A DNA stretch of 64,000 nucleotides from an uncultured Candidatus Saccharibacteria bacterium. GTDB lineage: Bacteria; Patescibacteriota; Minisyncoccia; Phycocordibacterales; 2-02-FULL-43-11. Position 1 is the stretch's first letter. Each line of letters begins with the position of its first letter. The stretch spans positions 66,238 to 130,237 of the forward strand of contig CAYGDO010000002.1 of NCBI GenBank assembly GCA_964348785.1. The letters run 5' to 3'. Under the pieces are notes generated by a model. It did no database searches. It was not told the origin of the DNA and saw only the letters and a program-made list of their open reading frames with translations. A program made the position numbers and the translations under genes. This document shows positions 19,301-60,766 of this stretch, piece after piece.

Positions 19301-22300
19301 TCCTAACACCTACAGGGATAGTTGAAATTGGAGAAGAAGCTGCCTCAATTTTCCCCAATCTATTCAACGAATCGTAAGTATAAACTGTTCGCGTACCATT
19401 CGGATCGGTTTTCCCCGTAAGATTGCCGACATCGTCATACTGATATGAGTAAACCCCGAAAGCGGTGTCACTTGGCGTGTGCAAATCTTCCGCCAAAAGT
19501 CGTCTACCGGAAAAGTCATAAGTGAAATTACGAATATTTTGAAGCGCATCTGTGATTTTTACAAGATTTCCTAAAGAATCATATTCATAAAATGTGGAGT
19601 AGGTGTCGGGATAATTAAATTCATCCACACGAGTAAGTCGGCCAAAAACATCTTTATAATATATTTTACTTTTACCGAGCGTGTCGGTAATTTTTGTCTG
19701 ACCGGGACTGAAATATGTATTGGTCGTCCCTAAAGCGTCAGTTTTCTGCACATTCCTACCGAGTGCATCATAAGTAAAGCTAGTATACAAAGAACTGTCA
19801 CTCGTGGCAGAAGTTTTACCTGAACCGTCACTAAAATATGGCAAAGATTGTTTTCCAACGCGACCCTCAGAATCATAAATTATGTCTGACACAATAAAAG
19901 TATTGGGATTTTCAGATTGTTTTCGAGTTTGTATCTCCCTACCAATGCCATCAAAATAAGTGTAGGTTTCGTTTGAAAGAGTACTGTTTATGAAATCAAC
20001 TTTTTTAACAGAAATATTATTTGGAGTATCTGTGTATTGATAAATTGTTTTTGTCACTAAAGAAGCCGAAATACCCGAAACCACGACGGAATTTCCGTCA
20101 GGCTGTTTTTCTTGAAGAGTACGGCCAAAAGCGTCGTATGCTTTGGAATAAATTTGATTATTTGAATCGGTGATTTGAATTGGCTTTCCTAGAGCGTAAT
20201 CGTAAAGATAAGTGGTTTTTTGATTCAAATGATTAGTGACTGAAATCGGAAAAAGATTGTATGTGTCGTAAGAATAACCGGTAGAATTTCCATTTGCATC
20301 GGTTGATGTTGCCACAAGCGCAAACGGATTGTATGTTGCAGAAGTAATGGAATACCTACCATCAGAAATCAAAGATTCTTGTTTTGTGCCATTGCCTTCT
20401 AAAAGTTGACCAAAAGGTAAATCATCAAAATATGTTTTTGATTCCGAAATCACATTTCCAGATTGCGAATTAGTAGTTTTATGAGATACCTCGTAATGAA
20501 TTTGTATTGAAGTTGAAGTGGAAACGCCCGCGTTTGAAGCGTACTCAACATTAGTTATAGTTTTGTCATTTCCAATATCAACAAAAGAATAAGAAGCGAG
20601 CGTGTTTGTTGACGCGGAAGTTACCTCGCCATAATCAACAGAAGAAATTAAATTGCCATTTGAGGTATCGTATGAATATTCCGTAGCGTGATCTTTGTGA
20701 GAAGTCGTGCCGTCAAAACTTTCTTCAATCTTTTTAGAAAGATACACAAATACCGGTGCGGAAGAAGTAAAGCCTGCTGAATTTACTCCCGCTAAAGGAG
20801 ACTCACTATAAATATTTTGATTTCTGGCGAACAACTTACCCTCCCTATCAAAAACTTCTGTTTTATATACAGAGCCGATTTTGCCGTAACTATCCCCTGT
20901 TTCTCCAGTTGAAGAGTTATCACCATTCCCCTGATGAAAATATGAAATTGTCACAGATTTTCCGGAATCTTTTGTAACCTTGCCAAATCCGGCAAATTTT
21001 CTATCGTGCGAACCGTTAAAAAATCCTTGCCCATCTGCGTAAGTGTATGTATCTACTTGTGGCTCTCCACCCACGCCATCGGTTGTAGTTATTTTGGACA
21101 CAATCCAAAGAACTGTTGGCAGTTTTAGATTAAACCGCTCACCCGAAGCGGAAGTTTTGTAATCAATAGATGTTTTTCCGCCTTGCGGGTAAGTTATAGT
21201 TTTTAAAATATCCGCTCTTGTTGTGGGGCCACTTGGAATATCAACGAGGGTGTCACCGTTGGTGTCATAGTAGTCGGTCAGTTGATAGGAAAAATTCCAC
21301 TTCCAATTGTAAGGATTTATTTTAATAAAATATGGAGACTTGAGGGTTGAACTTTTTACAAATCCATTTCCTGTATTTATGTAAACTTCATTATAATCCC
21401 CTGTTGTGTACCCGTTATCAAAATTTGGGTTGTTTGGCAAAACCCAACCACGCAAAACATCAACTAGCCCGTCAGCGTTAATATCCAGATACCGAACCCC
21501 CATATCATTACCGTCACCATCAGTCATCATTAATGTGTGGTCAGGTGAATCACCAAAAATAGGAACCATTGGTCCAGTTAACCCCCCATCTCCAGTACCT
21601 ATACGAAAAGAACTGTATCTATCGCTAGTCTTTGTATCATCTAAACCATCACCATTAACATCCATCGCACCCACTCGCCTCCTCTCCTCCCACCCAGATA
21701 TTTCGCGTCCATAAATTTCTGGTAGGCCATCTCCATTTGTGTCTGCAACGAAAGAGCCTTTGGCTACTAGCAAAGGAGTGGTAGTTGATATGTATGTATA
21801 ACTATTATCCAAACTATTAATACCGCTATTCAGATAAAGTGTCGGTGGATTGGGAGGAGGAGGACAGGTGGCGTTGGTACAACTACCTGCATTAAAGAGT
21901 GTAACCGGAACACCGAAAAAATCAGTTAAACCGTCACCATTCAAATCCGCAATACGCGCACCACTATCCTCTGGGCCTGAACCGTTTGAACCCCTAGTAT
22001 GATAAGCAAATCTTAAATTAGGTAGGGAATTTGAACCCGCTACGCCTAACTTGTTCCACTCCACCTGAATATTAAAACTATTTGATTCATAAGGGTTAAT
22101 TCCAAGCACAAATGAATCTGTGTAGCCATCACCATTCAAATCAGCATAAACATCTCCCCCTCTTTCTGGACCGTAAAAGAAAGAGCCGAGAGCCCAACTA
22201 AACGTACCGGATGAAATAGCAGGCTCAAGCCCCGTCGGTAAAACAGGATTTTCAAACCCCTTCGTGTACTCAAAAGTTGTTTGCGGTAAAGTTGTTGCAA

Positions 22301-23615
22301 CGTTTTGGGAGTCGTAGCCAGTTTCAGTAATTCCTGAAAGGATTGAACGTACGCCGTTTACACCAACTCCGTAGGCAAATTCGTATTTCTTTTTCAAAAT
22401 ATCACTGACACGAATTTCAATTATTTTGAGTCGTTTGGCATTGGTACTTAAAAATGCAAACTTGTATGAAGAAATAGCACTGTCTGAACGAGTATCTTCA
22501 TATACAAAAGTGACTTTGTAAATTCCAGATACAACTTCTCCGGAATTTGCCTGATGATTGGTATAAGTAATTTCAGTTGGATATACCTGACCGCCAGTTA
22601 CCGTATAGTTATATGAAATGTAATTACCGTTTGAATCACGGACTTCATCTAGATACCATTTAGCAACACGAGAAGCATTTGCAGGGTCCGCGTTTCGTGA
22701 AGTTGCCACCGAACCGAAAGTGTAGACTCTGCCGTTTTTATCATAAACCTTCCAACTCGTAGTGGTGGCGTTGTAAACATATTTCAAAAATTCGCCGGAA
22801 TCAACGCGAGGTTGATATAAACCAGCAATTGTAGTTGAGGCTAATTCACCGGATAAGCTGGAACTGAAATAATCTTGACCATACATTACTATATTTCCCT
22901 GCTTATTGATTCTCTCAATTGATGGAATGTTAAAATCCCAACCATACCCCATCGTATTTATGTTGGAATTCTCGGACGAGTTATATGAAATATTTAAAGA
23001 TGTCTCAACACCTGCCCTACCGGAAGGTGTAACAATCGGATAGGAATATGAAAGCGCTCCCGAGGAAGCATTGGCTTCGGGAAGAGTGGTTTTTCTATAA
23101 GCAAAATTGGAATTATCGTAAGTGGTTGGCTTGTTTTCCAACTGAGCGCTAGTGGCTTCAATTTCTGGAGGTAACAAGTCTTGCGCGTCCGGAGAAACCT
23201 CTGGAATTTCAGTGTCCAACTTTGGAGCTTCCGGAGCAATCTCGGGCACCACTTCAGTTTTTGGATTTGCATCTACAGTTGTTTCGGGAGTTATTTGTGT
23301 CGGGTCAGGTAAAATAGTAGAGCCTATTTCAGAATTTTCTGATGCAGAACTGCTTGGTGTTGATGTATCAGGAGAAACGTTGGTCTCAGCTGGGGTAGAT
23401 GGAGATGCAGTTTGGTCAGAGGAGGTTTCAACGGAAGCTACGGGGACAGGAGGTTGCGAAGCAACCTCCTGCGCAAACGCCACAGCAATCGGTTGCATTA
23501 AAAAAGCAACCACCAAAAAACTGGTTACGATTTTTTGCGTATTTGATTTTCTTATTTTCTTTGTAGAAACAATTGAAAAAAAGAAATTCATAGAATTTTT
23601 ACTGACACTTCCCAA
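16362..23615 (-). CDS. Tc-toxin-like TcB/TcC fusion / RHS polymorphic toxin: signal, S/T/P linker, SpvB domain, FG-GAP beta-propeller, YD repeats with LamG insertion, RHS core, C-terminal toxin domain
   Basis: SpvB-like N-terminal region. 'ADLNGDGLTD/DVNGDGLDD/LDINADGLVD' FG-GAP repeats. Many YD repeats ('YTYDALGR','YEYDSLGNL','YQYDDVGNL'). RHS core 'YHLIDHLGS...YYPYG...RYYDGARGQFLNQDPV...NPVTYKDPDGRF'. About 195-aa tip follows. Confidence 0.85.
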   Translation of the reverse strand: MGSVSKNSMNFFFSIVSTKKIRKSNTQKIVTSFLVVAFLMQPIAVAFAQEVASQPPVPVASVETSSDQTASPSTPAETNVSPDTSTPSSSASENSEIGSTILPDPTQITPETTVDANPKTEVVPEIAPEAPKLDTEIPEVSPDAQDLLPPEIEATSAQLENKPTTYDNSNFAYRKTTLPEANASSGALSYSYPIVTPSGRAGVETSLNISYNSSENSNINTMGYGWDFNIPSIERINKQGNIVMYGQDYFSSSLSGELASTTIAGLYQPRVDSGEFLKYVYNATTTSWKVYDKNGRVYTFGSVATSRNADPANASRVAKWYLDEVRDSNGNYISYNYTVTGGQVYPTEITYTNHQANSGEVVSGIYKVTFVYEDTRSDSAISSYKFAFLSTNAKRLKIIEIRVSDILKKKYEFAYGVGVNGVRSILSGITETGYDSQNVATTLPQTTFEYTKGFENPVLPTGLEPAISSGTFSWALGSFFYGPERGGDVYADLNGDGYTDSFVLGINPYESNSFNIQVEWNKLGVAGSNSLPNLRFAYHTRGSNGSGPEDSGARIADLNGDGLTDFFGVPVTLFNAGSCTNATCPPPPNPPTLYLNSGINSLDNSYTYISTTTPLLVAKGSFVADTNGDGLPEIYGREISGWEERRRVGAMDVNGDGLDDTKTSDRYSSFRIGTGDGGLTGPMVPIFGDSPDHTLMMTDGDGNDMGVRYLDINADGLVDVLRGWVLPNNPNFDNGYTTGDYNEVYINTGNGFVKSSTLKSPYFIKINPYNWKWNFSYQLTDYYDTNGDTLVDIPSGPTTRADILKTITYPQGGKTSIDYKTSASGERFNLKLPTVLWIVSKITTTDGVGGEPQVDTYTYADGQGFFNGSHDRKFAGFGKVTKDSGKSVTISYFHQGNGDNSSTGETGDSYGKIGSVYKTEVFDREGKLFARNQNIYSESPLAGVNSAGFTSSAPVFVYLSKKIEESFDGTTSHKDHATEYSYDTSNGNLISSVDYGEVTSASTNTLASYSFVDIGNDKTITNVEYASNAGVSTSTSIQIHYEVSHKTTNSQSGNVISESKTYFDDLPFGQLLEGNGTKQESLISDGRYSITSATYNPFALVATSTDANGNSTGYSYDTYNLFPISVTNHLNQKTTYLYDYALGKPIQITDSNNQIYSKAYDAFGRTLQEKQPDGNSVVVSGISASLVTKTIYQYTDTPNNISVKKVDFINSTLSNETYTYFDGIGREIQTRKQSENPNTFIVSDIIYDSEGRVGKQSLPYFSDGSGKTSATSDSSLYTSFTYDALGRNVQKTDALGTTNTYFSPGQTKITDTLGKSKIYYKDVFGRLTRVDEFNYPDTYSTFYEYDSLGNLVKITDALQNIRNFTYDFSGRRLLAEDLHTPSDTAFGVYSYQYDDVGNLTGKTDPNGTRTVYTYDSLNRLGKIEAASSPISTIPVGVRTTYTYDACDFGIGKLCAVSYADDSVGANLEMNSTSYAYTPAGQAKTETKIIGGKTFISSYLYNLGGGVTEMTGVDSKKTSYIYNSAGLVDSISATGVSTTTPVTQIGAFDYSPLGQLKTITYGNGVVATNTYDPARLYRLTNKKTLSANNLQLQNLSYTYDSVGNILQIVDNSETNTKKIATYKYDDLYRLVDALATPNQQSFAYNPLGNIISKIEGQVSLNPYSLDVEGDSSQYASVPTNAGISGGPITIEAWIKPESLPSAGFNIIASQQDAVTNVGYSLSTSYTDGSHHINFDRHIEGVGGARIIYDTTLSVGSWYHIVGTYNGTEMNLYLATSTSSGHTLVKGPTLAVGRGYGGFNELAIGKATFPNPHNWDGLVDDVRFWNTSRSLVDLDSNYLTELSGNEANLVAYYKLGNNYYDFTANAYHLTAFGAPIFNENTPFSSAVGKFTTTNYFYDGTDYANPHASTVTGSSVATNTLSYDKSGNLISFGNISYIYDYNNRLISVANGLATSTYAYDHGGARVKVSDGKGGVTLYPSKYFNAGYNSDDVVVSETSHVFVGDTLLSTFDKKTPVAPKLTNANAGTCVIPETGDFTLISSCTIVGSVTAPASVIVPVGKVLTVTADSTLYINLKASKLLVKKGGGVLIKKGGTIRQLKPIDLTSSSSLSYHLIDHLGSITLSTDTAGKVVELIDYYPYGSIRADEGGSPKEQRKYIGQEFDASTGLSYLNARYYDGARGQFLNQDPVFWEVGMSKEGKEALLNPQVQNSYSYGGNNPVTYKDPDGRFLPALVAVAGVLTMYAPQITSFAQSLLTPLGQVAVSQVIDDVDKGNYGMAAVGALTAGEIPAGKVVPVFEGIWSKGTKLTLADNAIYHAGKHAEKFGFKNTKEYIKGARDFVTDAMNGKTSLKIDAGGVARAYDSLSNSFAVFQINPKTGGTVINTFFKPSAGQAYFDRQAGQLINNLQSLSNSLKSLLKSLK

Positions 23616-24840
23616 TACAAATATCTCCGTCCGACACTAAATTCCCTGATAGTTTTATATCCCCAGCAACATCGAGTTTTGCCCCTGGAGTAGTAGTTCC
23701 GATTCCCACCCTACCCGTAGACTTTACTATAAGATATGAAGAAGAATTAATATACACGTCCCCTTTTGGTGGCGCGCCGACAGTCACATTATCAGCCGAA
23801 CTAAAACTAATAACATTTCTTTCGGTCCCAGAAGAATCTTTAAATTTTATAGATTGGCTATTATCAAGCAGTATGCTACCGCCACTTATGGTGAGTTTTT
23901 GAGTGGGCGATAAGGTACCTATACCTAATTTACCCCCAGTAAATACCATGTCTGGAGTAAGAGGATTAGAAACAACATTAGCAGTTAAACCAGTAGGGGT
24001 ATACCATCTAAAATCTGTAGCGGTATTTAATTGAACAGTAGCTGCCGTGCCAGAAGGAGTCACTCTATAACCAGCGCTATAAGATGGTTTACCTCCGGTA
24101 GACTGTAAAAACTCATTATTACCAGTCGTGTCGGTCATATATGTACCAAGATTTACATTATCTCCCCCTGTTGCACCTGAAGTTAATCTTAAATATCCTC
24201 CATTCAAAGTTAACCTCTCTGACGGTGAAATCGTCCCGACACCAACATTACCGGTTGAACCGACTATTACCATTCTTGACAGATGACCAGCCTTAAAATT
24301 AATGAGTGAGGTATAATCACCGAAATTAATTGGCAATGTGGTCTTACTGCCTGCCCCACCTGCAAAATAGAAACCAGTTGGATCCATACCAGCAATAATC
24401 TCTCTGTTTCTGTTTGAGAAAATATATCCACTAGTGGTATTACCGATACCAATACTACCGTAGGTTTCAAAAGGATAAAAAGGAGTTGTCGTACCCACCC
24501 CCATTCTTCCCGTCGTATCTATAGTAACTTTTGGATTGGAATTATTGGTGAAAAAATATAAATTGTGATTACTTTGAGTGCCTAGCCAACCACCAGGAAT
24601 TGAAGTATTCCAAACAAAAGTACCCATTTTCACCAAACCGTCTGTATGAACGAGACCATACTTACCGGTAGCTGTTTTTATAGTGAGAGGGCTTTCTGGA
24701 GAAGTCGTCCCGATACCAACATTACCAATGTTAGTATTGTAAATATTATTACCATTACTTTGCCAAAAAGCATCAGCAAAATTAATGTCCAAAAGAGTTA
24801 GAGTTGATAAAAAGACAACCAAAAATATTTTTTTATACAT
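23599..24840 (-). CDS. secreted repeat protein with tail-fiber-like 'G(N/S)VGIGTT(S/T)P' repeats, first gene of the RHS operon
   Basis: Signal peptide. Seven or more 'VGIGTTSP/ VGVGTISP / LGIGTLSP / VGIGTTTPGAKLDV' repeats. Ends 'DICIGKCQ'. Overlaps the RHS gene start by 17 nt. Confidence 0.6.
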   Translation of the reverse strand: MYKKIFLVVFLSTLTLLDINFADAFWQSNGNNIYNTNIGNVGIGTTSPESPLTIKTATGKYGLVHTDGLVKMGTFVWNTSIPGGWLGTQSNHNLYFFTNNSNPKVTIDTTGRMGVGTTTPFYPFETYGSIGIGNTTSGYIFSNRNREIIAGMDPTGFYFAGGAGSKTTLPINFGDYTSLINFKAGHLSRMVIVGSTGNVGVGTISPSERLTLNGGYLRLTSGATGGDNVNLGTYMTDTTGNNEFLQSTGGKPSYSAGYRVTPSGTAATVQLNTATDFRWYTPTGLTANVVSNPLTPDMVFTGGKLGIGTLSPTQKLTISGGSILLDNSQSIKFKDSSGTERNVISFSSADNVTVGAPPKGDVYINSSSYLIVKSTGRVGIGTTTPGAKLDVAGDIKLSGNLVSDGDICIGKCQ

Positions 24841-52336: not shown

Positions 52337-55300
52337 CTAAACGACCAAACTTACCAGCTTACCTTTAACATAAATTTCCTTTTTTATACTCTTACCCTCT
52401 ATCCAATTCTGCACCTCTTTAAGGCTTTTTGCCCTAGCAAACACTTCATCTTCCGATATGTCCTTCGAAACTAAAAATTGCCCTCTAATTTTGCCATTTA
52501 TTTGAACCATTATCATAAACTCATCATCAACCATCTTAGTTTCATCATATTTTGGCCAACTTTCTAGCGCAATAATGTCTTTATTCCCTAACTCATTCCA
52601 TAGTTCTTCCGCTAAATGAGGGGCGAATGGCGAAAAAATTTTAAGATAATCTTCAAACATCTTTTTTGGAACAAAATCAGAAGAATCCATCTCATTGGCA
52701 CAAATCATAAGAGCTGAAATGGTCGTGTTAAATCTCATACCCTCTATATCTTCACCAACTTTTTTTATAGTCTTATGAACAAGAGTTTCTAATTTATTAT
52801 TAATGTTTTCTTTTGTAGCCTCTATCCTAGAGTTGGCGAGCTGGCTTACAACTTTTTGTCCTATTCTCCATACTTTTTCAACAAATCTTCTTGCTCCAAC
52901 AATTCCATCAACACTCCAACTAATGGCCTGATCAAAAGGTCCCATAAACATTTCATAAATGCGCAAAGAATCAGCACCAAGTTTGTTTACAATATCATCA
53001 GGATTTATAACGTTCCCTTTAGATTTGGACATTTTTACGCCACCTTCTGCCAAAATAAGACCGTGGGAAGTTCTCTTATTATAGGGTTCTTTGGTTGGCA
53101 CAACACCAATATCAAATAAAAATTTATGCCAAAAACGAGAATACAAAAGGTGCAATGTTGTATGTTCCATTCCACCGTTATACCAATCCACGGGGCCAGT
53201 TTTTAGTTGATAGTTTTTAGTTGATAGTTTTTCGGAAATACCGGACCAATAATTAAATTCTTTATCAAAATCTTGAATCTTTAATTTTTTATTTTTGATT
53301 TTTGATTTCATCAAATACGCGAGGTAATACCAAGAACTACCGGCCCAATTTGGCATAGTGTCAGTCTCTCTTCTAGCATGCCCTCCACAATGAGGACATT
53401 TTGTATTCACCCATTTTTCAATAGATGATAAAGGTGACTCACCGTCATCAGTTGGTTGATATTTCTCCACATTGGGTAATTTAACAGGCAAATCTTTTTC
53501 TGGAACTGGGATAAATCCCGATGGAATTGTTAGACCAAAAACTGCTGGTTCATCAGATCCACAAAAATGTCTATCAGAAGGATAAGCAAAATTGACTTCA
53601 ACTCCATATGCTAAGGCCAAAGCATCATTTTCTTTTTTTGGAATAACGCCCTCCGAACTATCACCTAGCACTTCAACAAATTTTGTCTTAGTCCGAGCTT
53701 TTTTGAAATCAAACTCCCAATCATTACTTTTTTCAACACCCTCTCTTCTCTTATCAGAAAAGTTGGGGCTAATAAAGCTGTCTACAAAAACTACTTTATG
53801 AATTTTCGTCTTGAGTCTCGGCAAAAGCTTGTGGACAACAATTCCCCCCAAACTGTGGGCAACGATAATCGTATTTTCATTAAATTCAACATTTTTAAGC
53901 AAAAAATCTACCTGTTCGTCTATTTTTATACCATCCTTACCAATCGGTAAATTTTTAGCAAAGACCGAGTGCCCACCCGCTAATAATCTTCTTTTGAGTT
54001 CCGGGAAAAAATTAGCGTCTACTGAACCACCTCTGCCATGAATGATGACAAAATTAAATTTTTGCTTGGCACATTGTTCACAAAAAACTACTGGAATTGG
54101 TTCACCCCAATAATGTTGTCTTGAAAAAACCCAATCGCGAAGTTTATAATTAATAGCTTTTTTGCCCCAACCATTTTTAATCAAAAACTTTATGATGTCT
54201 TCCCGCGCCTCATCCCATCTTCGCCCTTTGAATTCTACCGGCTCTTCAAGAATACCATCCTCCTCCCGATAAAAAATTTCTTGTTTCCTAACAAGCTCGG
54301 CCTTAACCTCGTCTTTTGGAAAAAGCACTGGATGAAGTGGTATATCGAATTTTTTGGCAAAAGCATAATCTCGTTCATCATGAAAACTACAATTAACAAC
54401 ACCCGTACCATAATCAGAGACAACAAACGAAGCGACCCAGATTGGTAACTGTCTTTTAGCTGGAATATAATCAACATATCGCCCTGTAAAAATTCCATCC
54501 ATCTCACCTGTCTTTTCGTAAACACCGTTTGAACGTTTAGCAATCATCTCTTTCGCCTTCTTCATTACACCGTCCTCAAACTGTGTACCTTTTACTAGTT
54601 CAAAAAGCTTTGGATGATCCGGAGCAATTACAGTGAAAGTCTGCGCCATATAGGTTTGAGGAATTGAATCATACATCTCAAAATGCATATCTAGATCTTT
54701 AACTTTGAACTGTAGATTAACTCCTTCTGAACGTCCGATCCAATTTCTTTGCTGAATTTTTATTTTTTCCAAAAAATTTACATCGTCTAAATCTTTATCC
54801 AATCTGTCAGCATATTTTGTAATAGCAAGCATCCACTGCTCTTTGTCTTTCTTTTCAACTGGAGTACCACATCTTTCACAACATCCATCAACCACCTCTT
54901 CATTTGCTAAACCAATTTTATCTTTTGGACACCAATTTATAGGCATTTTCTTTTTGTATGCCAAACCATGTTTCAACAATTGAAGAAAAATCCATTGCGT
55001 CCATTTGTAATATTTAGGATCAGTAGTATTTATTTCTCTATCCCAATCAAAAGAAAATCCTACCGCCTTCAACTGCCTCCTGAAAGTATCTGTGTTTTGT
55101 TTAGTAACCTTTATGGGATGAATACCTGTTTTGATAGCATAATTTTCTGTTGGTAATCCGAAAGCATCCCAACCAATAGGATACAAAACATTAAAACCCT
55201 CCATCCTTCTTTTTCGACAAATCACATCCATAGCTGTATTCGAGCGAATATGCCCAACGTGAAGTCCATCGCCTGAAGGATAAGGAAATTCAATCAACCC

Positions 55301-55402
55301 GTAAAATTTAGGTTTTTTACTTCCATCAACGGCCTTGAAAATTTTCTTCTTTTCCCAAACTTTTTGCCATTTATTTTCTATCTTTTTATGGTCATAATCC
55401 AT
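52337..55402 (-). CDS. leuS: leucine--tRNA ligase carrying an inserted alpha/beta-hydrolase-like domain
   Basis: 'P..GDGLHVGH' HIGH, 'KMSKSKGN'. CP1 'IWVASFVVSDYGTGVVNCSFHDERDYAFAKKF'. About 230-aa insertion between 'CEQCAK' and 'KCPHCGG' contains 'IIHGRGGS' and 'AHSLGG'. Confidence 0.9.
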   Translation of the reverse strand: MDYDHKKIENKWQKVWEKKKIFKAVDGSKKPKFYGLIEFPYPSGDGLHVGHIRSNTAMDVICRKRRMEGFNVLYPIGWDAFGLPTENYAIKTGIHPIKVTKQNTDTFRRQLKAVGFSFDWDREINTTDPKYYKWTQWIFLQLLKHGLAYKKKMPINWCPKDKIGLANEEVVDGCCERCGTPVEKKDKEQWMLAITKYADRLDKDLDDVNFLEKIKIQQRNWIGRSEGVNLQFKVKDLDMHFEMYDSIPQTYMAQTFTVIAPDHPKLFELVKGTQFEDGVMKKAKEMIAKRSNGVYEKTGEMDGIFTGRYVDYIPAKRQLPIWVASFVVSDYGTGVVNCSFHDERDYAFAKKFDIPLHPVLFPKDEVKAELVRKQEIFYREEDGILEEPVEFKGRRWDEAREDIIKFLIKNGWGKKAINYKLRDWVFSRQHYWGEPIPVVFCEQCAKQKFNFVIIHGRGGSVDANFFPELKRRLLAGGHSVFAKNLPIGKDGIKIDEQVDFLLKNVEFNENTIIVAHSLGGIVVHKLLPRLKTKIHKVVFVDSFISPNFSDKRREGVEKSNDWEFDFKKARTKTKFVEVLGDSSEGVIPKKENDALALAYGVEVNFAYPSDRHFCGSDEPAVFGLTIPSGFIPVPEKDLPVKLPNVEKYQPTDDGESPLSSIEKWVNTKCPHCGGHARRETDTMPNWAGSSWYYLAYLMKSKIKNKKLKIQDFDKEFNYWSGISEKLSTKNYQLKTGPVDWYNGGMEHTTLHLLYSRFWHKFLFDIGVVPTKEPYNKRTSHGLILAEGGVKMSKSKGNVINPDDIVNKLGADSLRIYEMFMGPFDQAISWSVDGIVGARRFVEKVWRIGQKVVSQLANSRIEATKENINNKLETLVHKTIKKVGEDIEGMRFNTTISALMICANEMDSSDFVPKKMFEDYLKIFSPFAPHLAEELWNELGNKDIIALESWPKYDETKMVDDEFMIMVQINGKIRGQFLVSKDISEDEVFARAKSLKEVQNWIEGKSIKKEIYVKGKLVSLVV

Positions 55403-55465
55403 AGCGAAATATTACACTAGAAGTGTCTATTTTCAAAAAAGGAAATTTGATGGGCAAATATACTT

Positions 55466-58400
55466 TTAATTTGTCACAACATCAGTAGAAGAGGCTGTCG
55501 GTTCTATAATCGCCGGCATAGTCGTAGTAGATATATCGATAACAGGTAAAGTTGTTGACGCTTGAGAGTTCGGATTAAAAACAACTACAGTCCTTGTGGA
55601 AGTGGCAAAATTCATCATTGAATCATGGGCAACCCAAACTACTTCATAGGTACCCTCTCTAGATGTGTCCACTGTGCTACTTGCCAAATCAGGCATCAAG
55701 CTTTGCCCTTTAGAATCTAAAGCTGTGGCCCCCAAATCAATATACGTAGAATTTAAAGCGATTTCTGATGGGTTATTACCAATAAGAGTAATGACGGGTG
55801 TAGAAGTTGATACTACATTTGTCTGATTATCAATTTTTATATTAGAAAATACAGTTTTAAATTGTTCTTTAGTAACACATATATCCTCCAAACAAAGTTC
55901 TTTAGTCTCAACTCGATCAAACACTCCTAAAACTGAAGTAATTTTTGAGCCCATCCACTCAGCAACATTTGAGACAAAACTAGAAACCGTAGAAGTTGAA
56001 ATTTTAGATTCTAAATTCAAAATTCTTGATTCAATATCATTTAGACGAATAGAAGAAAAAACCGGAACGGAAATTAAAGTTGAGGAGGCCGTTGAAGATG
56101 CAATGGAAAAAGTGCTTGTTGCCGTCTGCCTCATATTTAAAACTGAAGCCAAATCTTGAACCGCAGAAACTGTTAAAGCTGTTAAGTTGCCATAAGAAAT
56201 ACCTTTACTACCCTCTTCACCAGAAACCACTTCAGGAATTTCTTTCTCGATATCTTGAGCAATAAAACCTATTTGAGGTAAGTGGTTCCCTTTCATCTCA
56301 TAATAAACAGGTTTTAAATTTAAAATGGATTGAAAAGAATATTTATTATTTAAAGGAATAATATTTTCCTTGTACGAAATATCAGATGCGCTAGTCCAAG
56401 CTCCAGCAGCATTTAAAGTCGCAGTATTTAATGACCCCCCTGTATCTCCTCCCAAAAAGGACATTACCCCAGACGTATTCATATATATGCTACGAAAATC
56501 AGTATTACCCGTTTCAGCTATATAAAGACCGCCCGTTTGATCATTAGCCGATTGAGTAATTGATAATCTGGCAGTAGGCGATGTTGTGCCCAATCCAATA
56601 ACACCAGTATTTTTAACTATAAAATCAGTTCTAGTTGAGGAGCCAATAACAAAAGATGGTCCGCCTATGCTATTTGGATTTATAGAAAATTGACCCCATG
56701 GAGTAGTAGTACCAACACCTAAATTACCATCAGAAGATTGTGCATAAAAAGTCGGATATAAATTATTTATAAAAGTTGAAATATATGATGATGTGCCGTG
56801 GATCACATCCTTAAGGCCATCACCATTTACATCCCCGACTGCAATTGAATTACCAGCCCCAACCGTATTATAAAGTTTTCGTGTTCTGAAAGTTCCATTA
56901 CCATTATTAATCAAAACTGATATTTGAGCTGTATTATTATTAGGAATAACTATATCTGGCCTAGTATCATCATTTAAATCACCGATAGCTATAACGAAAG
57001 GATTAACAATAGAAATACTATAAGCAACAGGTGATGCCAAAGTTCCACTAGTACTTCCCATAAAAATTGATACAGTACTTGGACCATTTGCGTTTGTAGA
57101 AACAACGTCATCATAGCCATCACCATCGAAGTCATCTACTCCTACCCAATAAGGCTGACCACTATTTGGCGAATAATCCGTCCTTGTGGCAAGAGTCCCA
57201 TCACCATTATTTAAAAAAATAGAAATTTTTGAACTACTCCAACAAGCAGTTGCGACATCCAACCAACCATCACCGTTAAAATCACCAAAAGTTGCCCCTC
57301 TTGAAGCAGAAAGATTCGAATAAGATACATAAGATGCAAAAGTGCCATCGCCATTATTCAAAAGAACGGAAATACCGCTAGCTCCTTGTGCCACCGCAAC
57401 AATATCATTCCAACCATCCCGATTAATATCACCAATATCGACACCATTAGGCCCAGCGCCAGTTGAATAATCAACTTTATTAGCAAAAGTTCCATCACCA
57501 TTATTTATAAAAACAGAAATAGTATTCGCGGTATAATTCCCAACAATTACATCTTGCGAACCGTCATTGTTTACATCACCTATAATAGAATCAATAGGAT
57601 TTGTACCCGCAGTATAGGTTACAGGAGCAGATAACACACCGGAGCTATTTAAAAACACTGTCATATTACTATTTGTATAATCCACACCAACAGCGTCAAC
57701 CCGTCCGTCACCATTTAAATCAGCAGTTTTGTCTCCCAAGGCGGCGCCAGTTGCAGATAAATCTACTCTTGTAGCAAAACTACTATCCATTTTAGAAACA
57801 GTTAAACCGGATGGTCCATTAACCTTCAGAGAACCAGCAAAAGTAGACGTGGCATTATAAGTATTAGTAGTTAAATTACCAGAAACAAATGCGTCACCAA
57901 CCACAGTAAACTTAACAAAAGGTGAGGATGTACCAACGCCAACATTACCTCCATTAGTGACAACAAAATTTGTAGCGGTAGAAGAACCTATCACAAAAGA
58001 TGGTGTTGTTATGCCATTTGGATTTATAGAAAATTGACCCCAAGGTGTACTAGTCCCGACTCCGATTCTGTTATTAATAGAATCGACATATAAAGTCCCA
58101 GAATCAAAATTGACATCGCTTGAAATTGTAGAAGTACCCGAACTTAAAGAAACAGTGAGTACTCCAGAAATAGTTGTGGAACCGCCAGATAAAGCTCCAG
58201 AAAAATTTCCGGTAACACTATCTAATCCTCCAGTTAAAGTGATAGAAGAACCGGAAAAAGAAGAATCTGAAATTGTGGCTCCACTTATAGTAACACTCGA
58301 TAATTTATCTATTTTATTAGATAAAGATATAGCTTGATAAACAGGAGCTAAAGATAAAGAATTATATGCTTGCTGTTTTTGTTGTTGATTAGCAACTAAA

Positions 58401-58873
58401 TATTTTATTTCGCTAATTTGTCTCTCCAATTTAAGCTTCAAATCATTAACGGAATTATCTATATCATTTTGAGATACACCAGAAATTTCTATTGTTTTAA
58501 TAATTTTTATTTGAGGTTCTTTTTTTTCTTCGGGCACAATATCTTGTGATTGTCTTGGCGTTGTTGAACTAACAACCGTGTTTAAATTTGCACCAAAACT
58601 TAAAGAATTTACAGAAGCCGGCAAATGATTGACCTTATCAAGCAAAACTGAAAAAGATGCTGAGGTATGATTAAAAATTCTAACCACTGTTCTGTTAAAA
58701 TTTAAAGCAAAATAAAAAGGAGCTCTTAAAACTTCAGAAAATGAAAGGGCCGAAGCAAAAGAGGGTGAAAAAATAAAAGAAGTAAACACCAAAATAACCA
58801 AAAAAATGTTTAGATTATTTTTTATGCTTTTATTCCACATACTTAAGACAAAAAACTTTTTTATCTCGTTCAT
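55466..58873 (-). CDS. large secreted surface protein: tail-fiber-like GxGTxTP repeats, FG-GAP beta-propeller, peptidase-S74 intramolecular-chaperone domain, C-terminal Ig-like (DUF5011-like) domain
   Basis: Signal peptide. 'NRIGVGTSTPWGQFSINPN' repeated. Seven 'D(L/V/F)N(G/N/R/D)DG..D' FG-GAP motifs. 'SDISYKENIIPLNN...LKPVYYEMKGNHLPQIGFIAQDIEKEIPEVV' S74 chaperone motif. 'VITLIGNNPSEIALNSTYIDLGATALD' Ig-like. Confidence 0.7.
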   Translation of the reverse strand: MNEIKKFFVLSMWNKSIKNNLNIFLVILVFTSFIFSPSFASALSFSEVLRAPFYFALNFNRTVVRIFNHTSASFSVLLDKVNHLPASVNSLSFGANLNTVVSSTTPRQSQDIVPEEKKEPQIKIIKTIEISGVSQNDIDNSVNDLKLKLERQISEIKYLVANQQQKQQAYNSLSLAPVYQAISLSNKIDKLSSVTISGATISDSSFSGSSITLTGGLDSVTGNFSGALSGGSTTISGVLTVSLSSGTSTISSDVNFDSGTLYVDSINNRIGVGTSTPWGQFSINPNGITTPSFVIGSSTATNFVVTNGGNVGVGTSSPFVKFTVVGDAFVSGNLTTNTYNATSTFAGSLKVNGPSGLTVSKMDSSFATRVDLSATGAALGDKTADLNGDGRVDAVGVDYTNSNMTVFLNSSGVLSAPVTYTAGTNPIDSIIGDVNNDGSQDVIVGNYTANTISVFINNGDGTFANKVDYSTGAGPNGVDIGDINRDGWNDIVAVAQGASGISVLLNNGDGTFASYVSYSNLSASRGATFGDFNGDGWLDVATACWSSSKISIFLNNGDGTLATRTDYSPNSGQPYWVGVDDFDGDGYDDVVSTNANGPSTVSIFMGSTSGTLASPVAYSISIVNPFVIAIGDLNDDTRPDIVIPNNNTAQISVLINNGNGTFRTRKLYNTVGAGNSIAVGDVNGDGLKDVIHGTSSYISTFINNLYPTFYAQSSDGNLGVGTTTPWGQFSINPNSIGGPSFVIGSSTRTDFIVKNTGVIGLGTTSPTARLSITQSANDQTGGLYIAETGNTDFRSIYMNTSGVMSFLGGDTGGSLNTATLNAAGAWTSASDISYKENIIPLNNKYSFQSILNLKPVYYEMKGNHLPQIGFIAQDIEKEIPEVVSGEEGSKGISYGNLTALTVSAVQDLASVLNMRQTATSTFSIASSTASSTLISVPVFSSIRLNDIESRILNLESKISTSTVSSFVSNVAEWMGSKITSVLGVFDRVETKELCLEDICVTKEQFKTVFSNIKIDNQTNVVSTSTPVITLIGNNPSEIALNSTYIDLGATALDSKGQSLMPDLASSTVDTSREGTYEVVWVAHDSMMNFATSTRTVVVFNPNSQASTTLPVIDISTTTMPAIIEPTASSTDVVTN

Positions 58874-58907
58874 TTTAGCACGAAAACAAAAAAATTATGT
58901 GGAAAAG

Positions 58908-60062
58908 TTAGATTTTGAACTCAATCACATCTCCATCCTTAACAACATACTCTTTGCCCTCAGTCTTCACCCATCCTTTTTCTCGAGCAAGAGAATAAGA
59001 ACCAGCTTCAAGCAGTTTGTCCCAATGTACAACCTCAGCCCTTATAAATTTCTCTTTAAAATCTGTGTGTATTGCCATACCTGCAATTGGCGCAGTAGAA
59101 CCGACTTTAACAGTCCAAGCCCTGGTTTCGTCTTCACCGGTCGTAAAATATGTCATGAGACCTAAAATTTCATAACTTTTTACGATTAAGTCATCTACAC
59201 CTCCCGCAAAAGCACCCATTTCTTTTTTCATTGTTTCTTTTTCTTCACCACTCATATCTTTCAAATCACTTTCAACTGAAGCATCAATCAAAACCCAACC
59301 CGAATTTGTTTCTTTGAAAAATTCCATGAGTTTAGTCCACCGAGGATCAACTACTTCACTTGCCCCGTTAGAAGTAGCCCCTCCCGCCGCGGGCGGGGCG
59401 TCAGTTCTAATGGGGTCCAAATTTTTACCTCCTGATTTTTTGTTTAAAACATAAAGAATTGGCTTTGAGGTCAAAAGATTTACTTGCTTTAAAATATTTT
59501 TCTCATCTTCAGTTAAAACAACACTGTTAGCCAATTTACTATCTTCTAAGACTGGTTTGATTTTTGATAAAATTTCGTGCTCAGCGATCGCTTCTTTTTT
59601 TCTAGCTTTTACATCTTTATTTAAGGATTCCATTCTTTTTGTAACAGTTTCAAGATCAGACAAAATCAATTCTAAATTTATAACCCCAACATCTCTTAAT
59701 GGATCAATTCCCCCATCAACGTGAATAACCTTGTCATCTTCAAAAATACGAACTACTTCAGCAATCGCATCTGTTTCTCTAATATGAGATAAAAATTTAT
59801 TACCCAAACCCTGACCTTCTGACGCTCCTTTTACAAGCCCGGCAATATCTACAAATTCGACAATGGCGGGGATAGTTTTTAATGATTTACTAAATACAGA
59901 TAATTTTCCTAGTCTATCGTCTGGCACGGCAACCACCCCAACTGACGGGTCGATAGTACAAAATGGATAATTTTCAGCTGGAACACTCTTCTTTGTTAAA
60001 GCGTTAAAAAGCGTTGATTTGCCGACATTCGGTAATCCCACAATCCCAATTGATAAATTCAT
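58908..60062 (-). CDS. ychF: ribosome-binding ATPase YchF/Ola1 with in-frame 18-aa insertion
   Basis: 'IGIVGLPNVGKSTLFNALT', 'NYPFCTIDPSVGVV', 'VDIAGLVKGASEGQGLGNKFL', TGS C-terminus. Insertion 'PIRTDAPPAAGGATSNGA' is encoded by the palindromic element at 59362-59415. Confidence 0.9.
   Translation of the reverse strand: MNLSIGIVGLPNVGKSTLFNALTKKSVPAENYPFCTIDPSVGVVAVPDDRLGKLSVFSKSLKTIPAIVEFVDIAGLVKGASEGQGLGNKFLSHIRETDAIAEVVRIFEDDKVIHVDGGIDPLRDVGVINLELILSDLETVTKRMESLNKDVKARKKEAIAEHEILSKIKPVLEDSKLANSVVLTEDEKNILKQVNLLTSKPILYVLNKKSGGKNLDPIRTDAPPAAGGATSNGASEVVDPRWTKLMEFFKETNSGWVLIDASVESDLKDMSGEEKETMKKEMGAFAGGVDDLIVKSYEILGLMTYFTTGEDETRAWTVKVGSTAPIAGMAIHTDFKEKFIRAEVVHWDKLLEAGSYSLAREKGWVKTEGKEYVVKDGDVIEFKI
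59362..59415. repeat. MITE-like palindromic element copy 1, in-frame inside ychF
   Basis: TIRs GCCCCGTTAGAA ... TTCTAATGGGG flank GC palindrome cccgccgcgggcggg. Local GC spike. Confidence 0.5.
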
Positions 60063-60292: not shown

Positions 60293-60766
60293 TTAAAAAC
60301 CCTTCGTAACACATCCGGATTTAGAAGTGAAATCCCATTCAGCATTACCGATATACCAACCAGACGCATTATAACCCAAACCGCATACTATATATCTATT
60401 TACTCCATCAAACACAGATATGGCATATCTAGGAACTGAAATATCACTAGTCCAACCACCACACGCGACACCGCAATATCTAAAACCTGTATCTGTTATA
60501 TTTGGCAGAACAGCCACATCACCATTACAAACATTTCCTCCTCCAAGGGCATCGCTTGCTGGAATATTCAAAGCAACTCCACCATTCAAACAATTATGTG
60601 CCACATCATTTACAACCATCATCATCTGAATTATCTTCGCCTGTTTAGCTTTTGTCCTTGCACTACTTAAGCTTGCAAAAACTACTGAAGATAAAACTCC
60701 AATTATTGATATAACCACCAAAAGTTCAACTAGAGTAAAAGCTTTATTACTATGAAAAATTGACAT
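60293..60766 (-). CDS. type IV pilin / pseudopilin-like protein with prepilin N-terminal methylation motif
   Basis: 'KAFTLVELLVVISIIGVLSSVV' class III signal. Cys-rich C-terminal globular part. Confidence 0.75.
   Translation of the reverse strand: MSIFHSNKAFTLVELLVVISIIGVLSSVVFASLSSARTKAKQAKIIQMMMVVNDVAHNCLNGGVALNIPASDALGGGNVCNGDVAVLPNITDTGFRYCGVACGGWTSDISVPRYAISVFDGVNRYIVCGLGYNASGWYIGNAEWDFTSKSGCVTKGF

Follow-up and report, generated by a model that had tools for sequence, protein, structure and literature searches.

A candidate host-attachment fiber with a mid-shaft FG-GAP propeller and an internal S74 chaperone domain in a Patescibacteria genome

We analyzed a stretch of 64,000 nucleotides (hereafter the window; positions 66,238 to 130,237 of contig CAYGDO010000002.1, assembly GCA_964348785.1) from an uncultured Candidatus Saccharibacteria bacterium of the Patescibacteriota, and focused on a single open reading frame (ORF) on its minus strand, located between leuS and ychF. 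We consider it most likely, with a probability of roughly 0.6, that the product is an exported homotrimeric fiber, folded from its C-terminus by an S74 domain and self-cleaved at A829|S830, which carries three Ca2+-stabilized lectin-like propellers and binds to host-cell surfaces. The ORF (55466..58873, ATG start in the ORF listing) encodes 1135 amino acids (aa), exactly as stated in an earlier reading of the bare sequence (the original prediction), and the two neighboring genes named there are both confirmed by Pfam. The precursor has a mass of 119 kDa and a pI of 4.5, and an identical protein (P0001) occurs in public assemblies. Its earlier description as "giant" was overstated, since relatives reach 2000-5000 aa.

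Domain organization of the fiber protein

Pfam domain calls, all above curated cut-offs, together with AlphaFold2 (AF2) models and their predicted local distance difference test (pLDDT) scores, gave the following map from N- to C-terminus.

aa 1-42 (58748..58873, minus strand): signal peptide or signal anchor; hydrophobic core at aa 21-39, then A-S-A before L43
aa 43-133 (58475..58747, minus strand): N-terminal region, no fold assigned; AF2 pLDDT <50
aa 134-175 (58349..58474, minus strand): long helix; AF2 helix 135-170, pLDDT 69-84
aa 176-363 (57785..58348, minus strand): first beta-helical segment, rich in S, T, G and N; capping-loop motifs, unit A
aa 260-328 (57890..58096, minus strand): fiber unit A; two GVGTxxP capping-loop motifs, at aa 271 and 312
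aa 364-705 (56759..57784, minus strand): FG-GAP propeller; Pfam FG-GAP_3, AF2
aa 706-829 (56387..56758, minus strand): second fiber segment and neck; AF2 beta-strands, pLDDT 76-89
aa 708-776 (minus strand): fiber unit B; two motifs, at aa 719 and 760
aa 830-925 (56099..56386, minus strand): S74 core and long helix; Pfam Peptidase_S74, AF2
S830 (56384..56386) and K835 (56369..56371), minus strand: predicted catalytic residues; dyad conservation
aa 926-1012 (55838..56098, minus strand): linker through Cys-hairpin
aa 926-990 (minus strand): S/T-rich linker and two helices (944-973); AF2
aa 991-1012 (55838..55903, minus strand): Cys-hairpin 'KELCLEDICVTKEQF' / 'ELCLEDICVTKEQF' with C994, C999 and a short helix; AF2 pLDDT about 75 over 990-1010
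aa 1028-1098 (55580..55792, minus strand): Ig-like domain (Bact_surface_Ig-like, formerly DUF5011); Pfam, AF2
aa 1099-1135 (55466..55579, minus strand): S/T/P-rich tail and stop; no transmembrane segment, no LPxTG

The chaperone domain matches Peptidase_S74 (PF13884; E = 9.6e-10, 39.1 bits against a cut-off of 22, profile positions 1-57 of 58) at aa 830-883, corresponding to 56225..56386 and thus lying inside the range of about 56200-56400 in which the original prediction had seen an S74 motif. It opens with S830-D-I-S-Y-K835 (SDxxxK, i/i+5 spacing), and S830 and K835 are invariant in all 94 aligned relatives as well as in 57 of 57 S74-bearing representatives of an exhaustive search. The equivalent residues are the catalytic dyads of endoNF (S911/K916) and MyRF (S587/K592), the latter being cut at P586|S587 (PMC8326128), and in Bdellovibrio Bd3182 the exchange S782A abolishes self-cleavage (PMC10769870); the spacing of the dyad in the window protein is identical to that in all three. 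Because the dyad is invariant, autocleavage is predicted at A829|S830, which would yield products of 81.5 kDa (aa 43-829) and 33.0 kDa (aa 830-1135). AF2 modeled aa 830-920 with pLDDT values of 84-97, including a helix (894-924) after a beta-rich core, and Foldseek matched the S74 region to the MyRF ICA domain (7dc3; E = 2.6e-4, template modeling (TM) score 0.60-0.63 over 123 columns). A neck ('SITQSAN..GGLYIAETGNTDFRS..') leads to the cleavage site and is conserved in P0035, P0073, P0129, P0130 and L003. L003 (34..6837, plus strand, >2267 aa; Patescibacteria metagenome-assembled genome (MAG) JAIEOU010000006) is the closest relative in the genome collection and has the same neck, S74 domain and 'ELCIEDVC' module as the window protein. 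Instead of FG-GAP repeats, it contains two long blocks of 'HSIQRPDGxFLxV..IYDPxxNT' repeats, with a weak match to Kelch_6.

The propeller, 342 aa in length, was recognized by both FG-GAP_3 (E = 1.9e-48, 163 bits against a cut-off of 26.9) and FG-GAP (1.3e-19). The S74 and FG-GAP hidden Markov models (HMMs), on which the original prediction was to stand or fall, therefore both score above cut-off, and the seven FG-GAP motifs that it had counted correspond to seven loops of the DxNxDGxxD type, starting at aa 385, 433, 482, 531, 581, 632 and 681 with a period of ~49 aa. D1, N/D3, D5 and D9 are present in 7/7 loops and G6 in 6/7 (the sixth loop reads DLNDDTRPD), and the Asp columns of the loops are invariant across an alignment of 25 sequences. 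By this pattern of residues, the loops would be expected to bind Ca2+ and to be stabilized by it. In an AF2 run with the propeller only, based on an alignment of trimmed homologous segments, the mean pLDDT was 86.3 and the predicted TM score 0.84; the model has 28 strands, in seven blades of four, and its fold is that of a closed seven-bladed FG-GAP propeller.

Fold matches of the propeller model included CRTAC1 (1.3e-11), the lectins AAL2, PVL and PAL, UmbA4, integrins alphaV and alphaIIb, TcB and Bap1. PVL, AAL2 and PAL are Ca-dependent N-acetylglucosamine lectins, and the matched UmbA4 structure is bound to teichuronic acid. As fold neighbors are lectin-like and the Ca loops are intact, we infer a lectin-like function for the propeller. 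PVL (Psathyrella velutina), AAL2 (Agrocybe), PAL and Streptomyces UmbA4, the lectin spoke of an umbrella toxin, share with it the seven-bladed FG-GAP architecture and the DxNxDGxxD loops (E about 1e-10), and UmbA in addition presents multivalent lectin propellers on an elongated scaffold that targets other microbes. Sequence identity to the window propeller is 18-24%, and these proteins are free lectins or the spoke of a toxin particle, whereas the propeller of the window protein is inserted in a fiber shaft.

Evidence for this insertion comes from the two fiber units. Identity between units A and B amounts to 56.5% across 69 aa (E = 6e-22), and in the propeller-less relatives P0073 and P0094 tandem units match each of A and B at 55-71% identity and are contiguous. 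Since the units are duplicated, and contiguous in relatives without a propeller, the propeller represents an insertion between shaft units. The FG-GAP part seen in the original prediction is thus an insert of the shaft and not a separate N-terminal module.

Among the 57 closest S74 representatives, the window protein is the sole propeller bearer. Two more fibers with S74 and FG-GAP were found elsewhere: P0056, with the same set of four domains as the window protein, and L007 (1807..7155, plus strand, 1783 aa; MAG JAUSIP010000017). L007 has an N-terminal domain like that of the Bdellovibrio mosaic adhesive trimers (MATs, see below), capping-loop units and two seven-loop FG-GAP cassettes with near-identical junctions; its C-terminal part comprises S74 with an intact dyad, a Cys-hairpin and a DUF5011 Ig domain. 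Its layout is intermediate between that of the Bdellovibrio MATs and that of the window protein. FG-GAP fibers without S74 are represented by P0053, P0117 and P0014. Cassette junctions are strongly conserved in P0056, L007, P0053, P0117 and P0014; the window protein has kept the downstream junction, and its upstream junction is divergent. Other inserts on the same framework are Kelch (L003), LVIVD (P0381) and a ConA-like lectin domain (P0117). Mid-shaft insertion of modules is a theme in the CPR (candidate phyla radiation) branch of the fiber family, and module swapping of this kind is the mosaic pattern expected of binding modules.

The S74 domain is internal, with about 220-250 aa following its core; in 100 S74 domains drawn from 79 genomes, the corresponding median was 36 aa. 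Of the 57 closest S74 representatives, 35 continue for more than 150 aa beyond S74, and 36 have a Cys pair there. This pair (C-x4-C to C-x10-C, consensus 'ELC[VI]xxxC[VI]TxE') is located after the S74 coiled coil, and the feature was also noted in L071, L048 and P0035/P0073/P0108; in Bdellovibrionota fibers, a Cys pair lies at the extreme C-terminus ('ALCELGKQQFC', 'YICKKDPEAPNC'). In the AF2 model of the window protein, the pair forms a beta-hairpin outside the Pfam S74 model, which may be a disulfide staple. The DUF5011-like Ig domain that the original prediction had put after S74 is borne out by PF16403 (1.5e-9, 38.2 bits against a cut-off of 27, full profile 1-71, aa 1028-1098), by pLDDT values of 85-95 and by Foldseek matches to Big_3 (2kpn), SusCD-associated lipoproteins and SlpX; the family profile matches 2kpn at 1.3e-4. 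The order of the two domains had been seen correctly and was not treated as unusual. Viral matches all stop near the S74 end, and the post-S74 extension is absent from them. Neither a transmembrane segment nor LPxTG was found in the tail of the window protein. Of 74 long tails after S74 in relatives, 73 are likewise free of such anchor signals, the remaining one having a borderline hydrophobic segment. Tails without such signals make a MyRF-like release from an anchor unlikely, and we rejected this possibility.

At the N-terminus, a single hydrophobic segment (aa 21-43) contains the sole 19-mer of the protein that scores >1.7. This segment and the A-S-A sequence after it suggest export and cleavage by signal peptidase, and the relatives P0108, P0094 and P0073 begin with comparable signal peptides. 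The helix at aa 134-175 is likely to form a trimeric coiled coil at the fiber base, judging from the model; aa 119-228 match the equivalent region of the CPR fiber P0108 (E = 8e-9). A full-length AF2 run with a mixed alignment gave a mean pLDDT of 54 and left propeller and shaft unfolded. A search of the window protein against NCBIfam produced no match above cut-off, and a search against PHROGs weak matches only, the best being phrog_28992 of unknown function (1.5e-6).

The S74-matured fiber superfamily

A phmmer search with the single sequence of the S74 region gave no match in the Protein Data Bank (PDB), and a profile of 40 sequences of the C-terminal module was therefore needed. This profile matched a phage tail fiber (8jov, 2e-16) and Bdellovibrio Bd2133 (8ond, 2e-14), and also the Bdellovibrio structures 8oml, 8ojn, 8ol4 and 8on4 ('cell wall surface anchor family' fibers), the distal subunit of a phage long tail fiber (6f45), MyRF (7dc3) and the GA-1 neck appendage (3gud). 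The MATs are a set of 21 surface-displayed trimeric beta-helix fibers of B. bacteriovorus (Caulton et al. 2024, PMC10769870), and S74 forms the C-terminus of 13 of them. Their capping loops follow the pattern V-G-x-x-x-x-P-x-x-x-L, their adhesive tips are exchangeable, and one MAT binds to glycans of the prey (PMC10769870). Four copies of the capping-loop motif [VIL]G[VL]GT..P...[FL] are present in the window protein, and the profile aligns the capping-loop units to Bd2133 (8ond) and four other MAT structures; by this alignment, the 'GxGTxTP repeat' of the original prediction corresponds to the MAT capping-loop unit. Taken by these matches, the window protein is a member of a large superfamily of S74-matured, beta-helical cellular fibers that is common in Patescibacteria. 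Its earlier description as a trimeric adhesin or fiber matured by S74 fits the dyad, the MyRF-ICA fold and the profile matches to MAT and phage structures, with the amendment that the family is MAT-like and cellular rather than simply "phage-type".

With the MATs, the window protein shares the format of a cellular protein of ~1000 aa (with a signal peptide in the MATs and an N-terminus resembling one here), a beta-helix shaft with a capping loop of the V-G-x-G-T-x-x-P-x-x-x-L type, mosaic exchange of binding modules and presence in a bacterium living on other bacteria. With their S74 subgroup (e.g. Bd3182; Bd2133 exemplifies the NS74 members) it also shares the S74 domain with SDxxxK. In contrast to MATs, it has the binding-type domain in mid-shaft and not at the C-terminal tip, and helices, Cys-hairpin and Ig domain follow S74, which ends the protein in MATs. 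Moreover, the host belongs to the Patescibacteria, which are unlisted in the MAT paper. The MAT N-terminal domain (~130 aa, beta-rich, directly after the signal peptide) is present in 21/21 MATs (PMC10769870) and is another point of difference. BLASTP of the window protein against the N-domains of the Bdellovibrionota proteins L029 and L048 gave a best E-value of 0.18, compared to 4e-25 between those two domains as a control, and an HMM of the domain detected P0117 (4e-16) and P0180 and left the window protein undetected; AF2 modeled aa 43-133 as helices at low confidence, not as a beta-rich fold. An N-domain of the MAT type is present in the propeller-bearing relatives L007 and P0117, and L007 thus differs from the window protein in this domain as well as in its two cassettes. 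The MAT paper (PMC10769870), its supplements and a 2025 review make no mention of a propeller, DUF5011 or Patescibacteria. Our literature search, with incomplete coverage and hence as absence of evidence only, found nothing on S74, MAT-like or FG-GAP fibers in CPR.

Two further groups of proteins are informative for the S74 domain. Phage chaperone domains (endoNF of K1F, the T5 L-shaped fiber, 8jov, 6f45, 3gud) share the S74 core, the Ser-Lys dyad and the following helix, and with them the expected role of templating a trimeric beta-helix before self-cleavage. The window gene differs from them by its housekeeping context, a putative signal peptide and the post-S74 extension. In the eukaryotic membrane-bound transcription factors MyRF and MrfA, the S74/ICA domain is internal as in the window protein, with the same dyad and a matching fold (7dc3), and in either case cleavage would yield two polypeptides, each with folded domains. 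As MyRF is active with an internal ICA domain, a terminal position of S74 is not essential for activity. The C-terminal product of MyRF is a membrane anchor, whereas no anchor signal follows S74 here, and the biological setting is wholly different.

Two homolog searches proved unsuitable, one being swamped by generic FG-GAP proteins and the other, with the C-terminal module, missing long proteins including the query's own entry; counts were therefore taken from the exhaustive search. It returned 22,553 representatives at E <=1e-3 and 470 at <=1e-30, and many of its top matches align via tandem Ig repeats only. The closest relatives are cellular CPR proteins with 44-61% identity, and the closer relatives are uncharacterized 'tail fiber domain-containing' proteins of Taylorbacteria, Parcubacteria, Paceibacterota, Gottesmanbacteria, Kaiserbacteria and Minisyncoccia. 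Patescibacteria proteins annotated as 'tail fiber' or 'DUF5011 domain-containing' (P0108, P0374, P0381, P0474, P0456, L007, P0056) share the neck, S74, Cys-hairpin and Ig module with the window protein at 33-61% identity, but most of them are without a propeller. The broader S74 module is also found in Bdellovibrionota, Bacteroidota, Planctomycetota and others. Viral matches were confined to the S74 part, nearly all at <=40% identity.

Genomic setting and the Rhs/Tc locus

The fiber gene is absent from the ychF-leuS junction of the closest relative found, L163 (YchF 87% identical), which has a pilin-like gene, ychF, 38 nt and then leuS; a second contig, L164, has the same ychF-leuS spacing. 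The segment missing from L163 is the following.

about 55442..58906 (~3.47 kb, no strand assigned): segment absent from the L163 ychF-leuS junction; BLASTN collinearity

Collinearity with L163 in BLASTN breaks at window positions 58903 and 55382, i.e. between the ychF stop and a conserved box upstream of leuS. The promoter-like box of leuS, 'CCTTTT(TT)GAAAATA..GTGTAATATTT', is found directly after the ychF stop in L163. A TTGAAA-N16-TAATAT box upstream of leuS is conserved in L163, and the counts of a promoter/terminator scan equal the shuffle expectation. The fiber gene is an accessory gene of ~3.5 kb, with presence/absence polymorphism between near relatives, and this accessory status is as expected of a variable host-range determinant.

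The neighbors on the same strand are LeuS (52337..55402) and YchF (58908..60062), and the flanking genes as a whole encode AlaRS, MnmA, YceG, GrpE, a sigma-like protein, LeuS, YchF, a pilin-like protein and DnaE. No phage genes were found within at least 10 kb on either side (annotated flanks), in agreement with the original prediction, which had reported no prophage context. A prophage origin was rejected on this gene context together with the limited coverage of viral matches. GC content at third codon positions (GC3) is 0.21 in the fiber gene, compared to 0.28-0.29 in its neighbors. YchF has 74-76% identity to sequences of Candidatus Taylorbacteria, and its named top matches are all from Patescibacteria; by these matches, we place the bacterium in the Paceibacterota, near Candidatus Taylorbacteria.

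Several features of the neighboring genes are recorded here. A type IV pilin-like gene (60293..60766, minus strand; N_methyl motif, 1.8e-7) lies just upstream of ychF, a position conserved in L163. In the fiber family, P0235 combines a pilin N-methylation motif and an S74 domain in one protein, which hints that some S74 fibers may be presented on pili. LeuS (minus strand) contains an inserted alpha/beta-hydrolase-like domain at about aa 451-548, after the editing domain and before the catalytic core's C-terminal half, with matches to Ser_hydrolase (PF06821, 2.2e-5) and Abhydrolase_1 and an 'AHSLGG' nucleophile-elbow motif; LeuS of L163 is annotated with the same insert. YchF (minus strand) has 384 aa, compared to 365 aa in most relatives, the surplus being a G/A/P-rich insert ('...DAPPAAGGATSNGASEVVDP...') at about aa 205-245.

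The window also contains a Tc/Rhs locus (16362..24840, minus strand). It encodes a 2417-aa protein with SpvB, TcdB_toxin_midN, FG-GAP_3, RHS repeats, Laminin_G_3 and DUF6443, the start of which overlaps by 17 nt the end of a gene for a signal-peptide-bearing protein of 413 aa (23599..24840). The latter has five capping-loop units of the MAT type and ends in 'GDICIGKCQ'; as a possible short MAT-like fiber acting as toxin partner, it is worth a look of its own. GC content is 0.40-0.42 over 16-24 kb and 0.32-0.36 elsewhere, which suggests that this region is an acquired island.

The original prediction had reported GxGTxTP repeats shared between the fiber protein and the 413-aa protein, and the G(V/L)GTxxP motif is indeed present in four copies in the former and five in the latter, and in no other ORF of the window; at least two copies were obtained in 0 of 5000 shuffles. 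The proposed alignment of the repeats also revealed similarity (E = 1e-4), which did not go beyond the generic motif (best local match with 15/35 identical residues). The 413-aa protein matches the MAT fiber structure 8ojn by itself (E = 9e-4). The further claim that the shared repeat links the fiber gene to the toxin locus was not supported, as the repeat is a generic capping-loop motif of the fiber superfamily and 31 kb of DNA with housekeeping genes separates the two loci.

Proposed function and alternatives

In the reading that we favor, three chains would be exported by Sec, and their S74 domains (aa 830 to about 1010) would associate into a trimer that templates the upstream intertwined beta-helix in C- to N-terminal direction. 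After correct trimer assembly, S830-K835 would cut A829|S830, giving a mature fiber of ~81.5 kDa per chain and a 33-kDa fragment consisting of chaperone, Cys-hairpin and Ig domain. In mid-shaft, each chain would exit the beta-helix, form a Ca2+-stabilized propeller (aa 364-705) and rejoin, and the fiber would carry three lateral lectin-like modules plus a tip exposed by cleavage. Presumably displayed on the cell surface, it would likely serve to recognize, and attach to, glycans or proteins on the surface of a host microbe.

Several observations weigh against this proposal. The S74 domain is not terminal, and the proposal gives no role to the Ig domain on the released fragment. The dyad is degenerate in L003 ('TTPADVEHNED'; S to A, K to N), which is probably a non-cleaving variant by this substitution and indicates that cleavage is not obligatory in the family. 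The N-domain that defines MATs, and is thought to hold the fiber on the cell, is absent. Non-lectin propellers (CRTAC1, BBSome, KICSTOR, TcB, Bap1) are among the top fold matches, the shaft has pLDDT <50 in the monomer AF2 model, and CPR members of the fiber family are known from sequence and model alone. Finally, deletions of MATs in Bdellovibrio cause little or no predation defect.

A tentative alternative, clearly less probable than release of a spent chaperone, is that the C-terminal part is kept or functional by itself. S74 could mainly be a trimerization module, with Cys-hairpin and Ig domain as the functional distal tip, or the 33-kDa fragment could stay bound non-covalently, as a cap hiding the tip up to the moment of contact or as a handle for the wall or S-layer during assembly. 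The long post-S74 tail (35/57) and the Cys-hairpin (36/57) are conserved in close relatives, which argues that the extension has a function; PF16403 Ig domains are typical of bacterial surface proteins, in line with the fold matches to SlpX and SusCD lipoproteins; L003 has lost the dyad and kept the module; and MyRF provides a precedent for two functional products (PMC8326128). However, the dyad is strictly conserved here and in 57/57 close representatives, favoring cleavage, an anchor signal is missing from the 74 long tails bar one borderline segment, and the C-terminal domain leaves the mature fiber in every characterized S74 system. It appears unlikely that the protein is instead a general matrix, envelope or biofilm protein, with a propeller for cell-cell or cell-matrix cohesion and not for specific host recognition. 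Extracellular FG-GAP/VCBS proteins are very common in many free-living bacteria, the propeller's fold matches include Bap1, a matrix protein of Vibrio biofilms, and relatives of the S74 module are found in many non-symbiotic phyla, including Bacteroidota and Planctomycetota. Against such a general role, the gene is accessory and absent in the closest relative, module swapping as seen in the family is typical of specificity determinants, and the nearest characterized homologs are prey-binding adhesins.

We give very little credence to the idea that the fiber is a trans-acting targeting or delivery part of the Rhs/Tc-type locus (16362..24840). The 413-aa protein shares the capping-loop repeat and matches a MAT fiber structure, the RHS protein has its own FG-GAP_3 segment, and lectin-decorated toxin particles do exist, with UmbA4 among the fold matches of the propeller; yet the similarity is confined to a generic motif common to thousands of fibers across many phyla, and the fiber gene lies 31 kb away, beyond housekeeping genes, in a separate indel at the ychF-leuS junction. 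It is equally improbable that this is a phage tail-fiber gene gone astray or domesticated (a prophage remnant, a moron or part of a tailocin) whose product serves a virus-like particle and not the cell. S74 is best known from phage tailspikes and fibers, related S74 modules are encoded on viral contigs, phrog_28992 is matched weakly (1.5e-6), and the gene is inserted in comparison with a close relative, with GC3 below that of its neighbors. This origin is difficult to reconcile with flanks free of phage genes for at least 10 kb, with an N-terminus resembling a signal peptide, which virion proteins lack, with closest relatives that are cellular CPR proteins, and with viral matches that are S74-only, mostly at <=40% identity, and miss the Cys-hairpin/Ig extension.

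To our knowledge, host-cell recognition and binding by the ultrasmall CPR/Patescibacteria are largely unexplained. According to two papers, type IV pili are the sole factors in CPR host binding tested so far (PMC12206443, PMC13194787). The present analysis places a Paceibacterota genome in the fiber superfamily that Bdellovibrio displays and uses on prey glycans, and both the lectin-like mid-shaft propeller and the conserved Ig-bearing post-S74 extension are undescribed for this superfamily. In a speculative and rather doubtful generalization, Patescibacteria would use strain-variable MAT-like S74 fibers for host recognition, with mid-shaft specificity modules (FG-GAP/Kelch/LVIVD propellers, ConA-like lectins) as side-arms, and not at the tip alone, and S74 cleavage as a two-product switch that frees both the fiber and a functional Ig-tagged fragment. 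If true, such a switch would parallel in bacteria the logic of MyRF, with the Ig-tagged fragment as an assembly handle, tip cap or decoy. Should our reading be wrong, what is left is still a well-annotated example of the common 'tail fiber domain-containing protein', in a gene context that is not that of a phage. By analogy to the prey-binding fibers of Bdellovibrio to which it is related, the protein is plausibly a host-attachment protein. Its presence/absence polymorphism and the module swapping in the family mark it as a concrete candidate determinant of host range, and one that can be approached through recombinant fragments although the organism is uncultivated.

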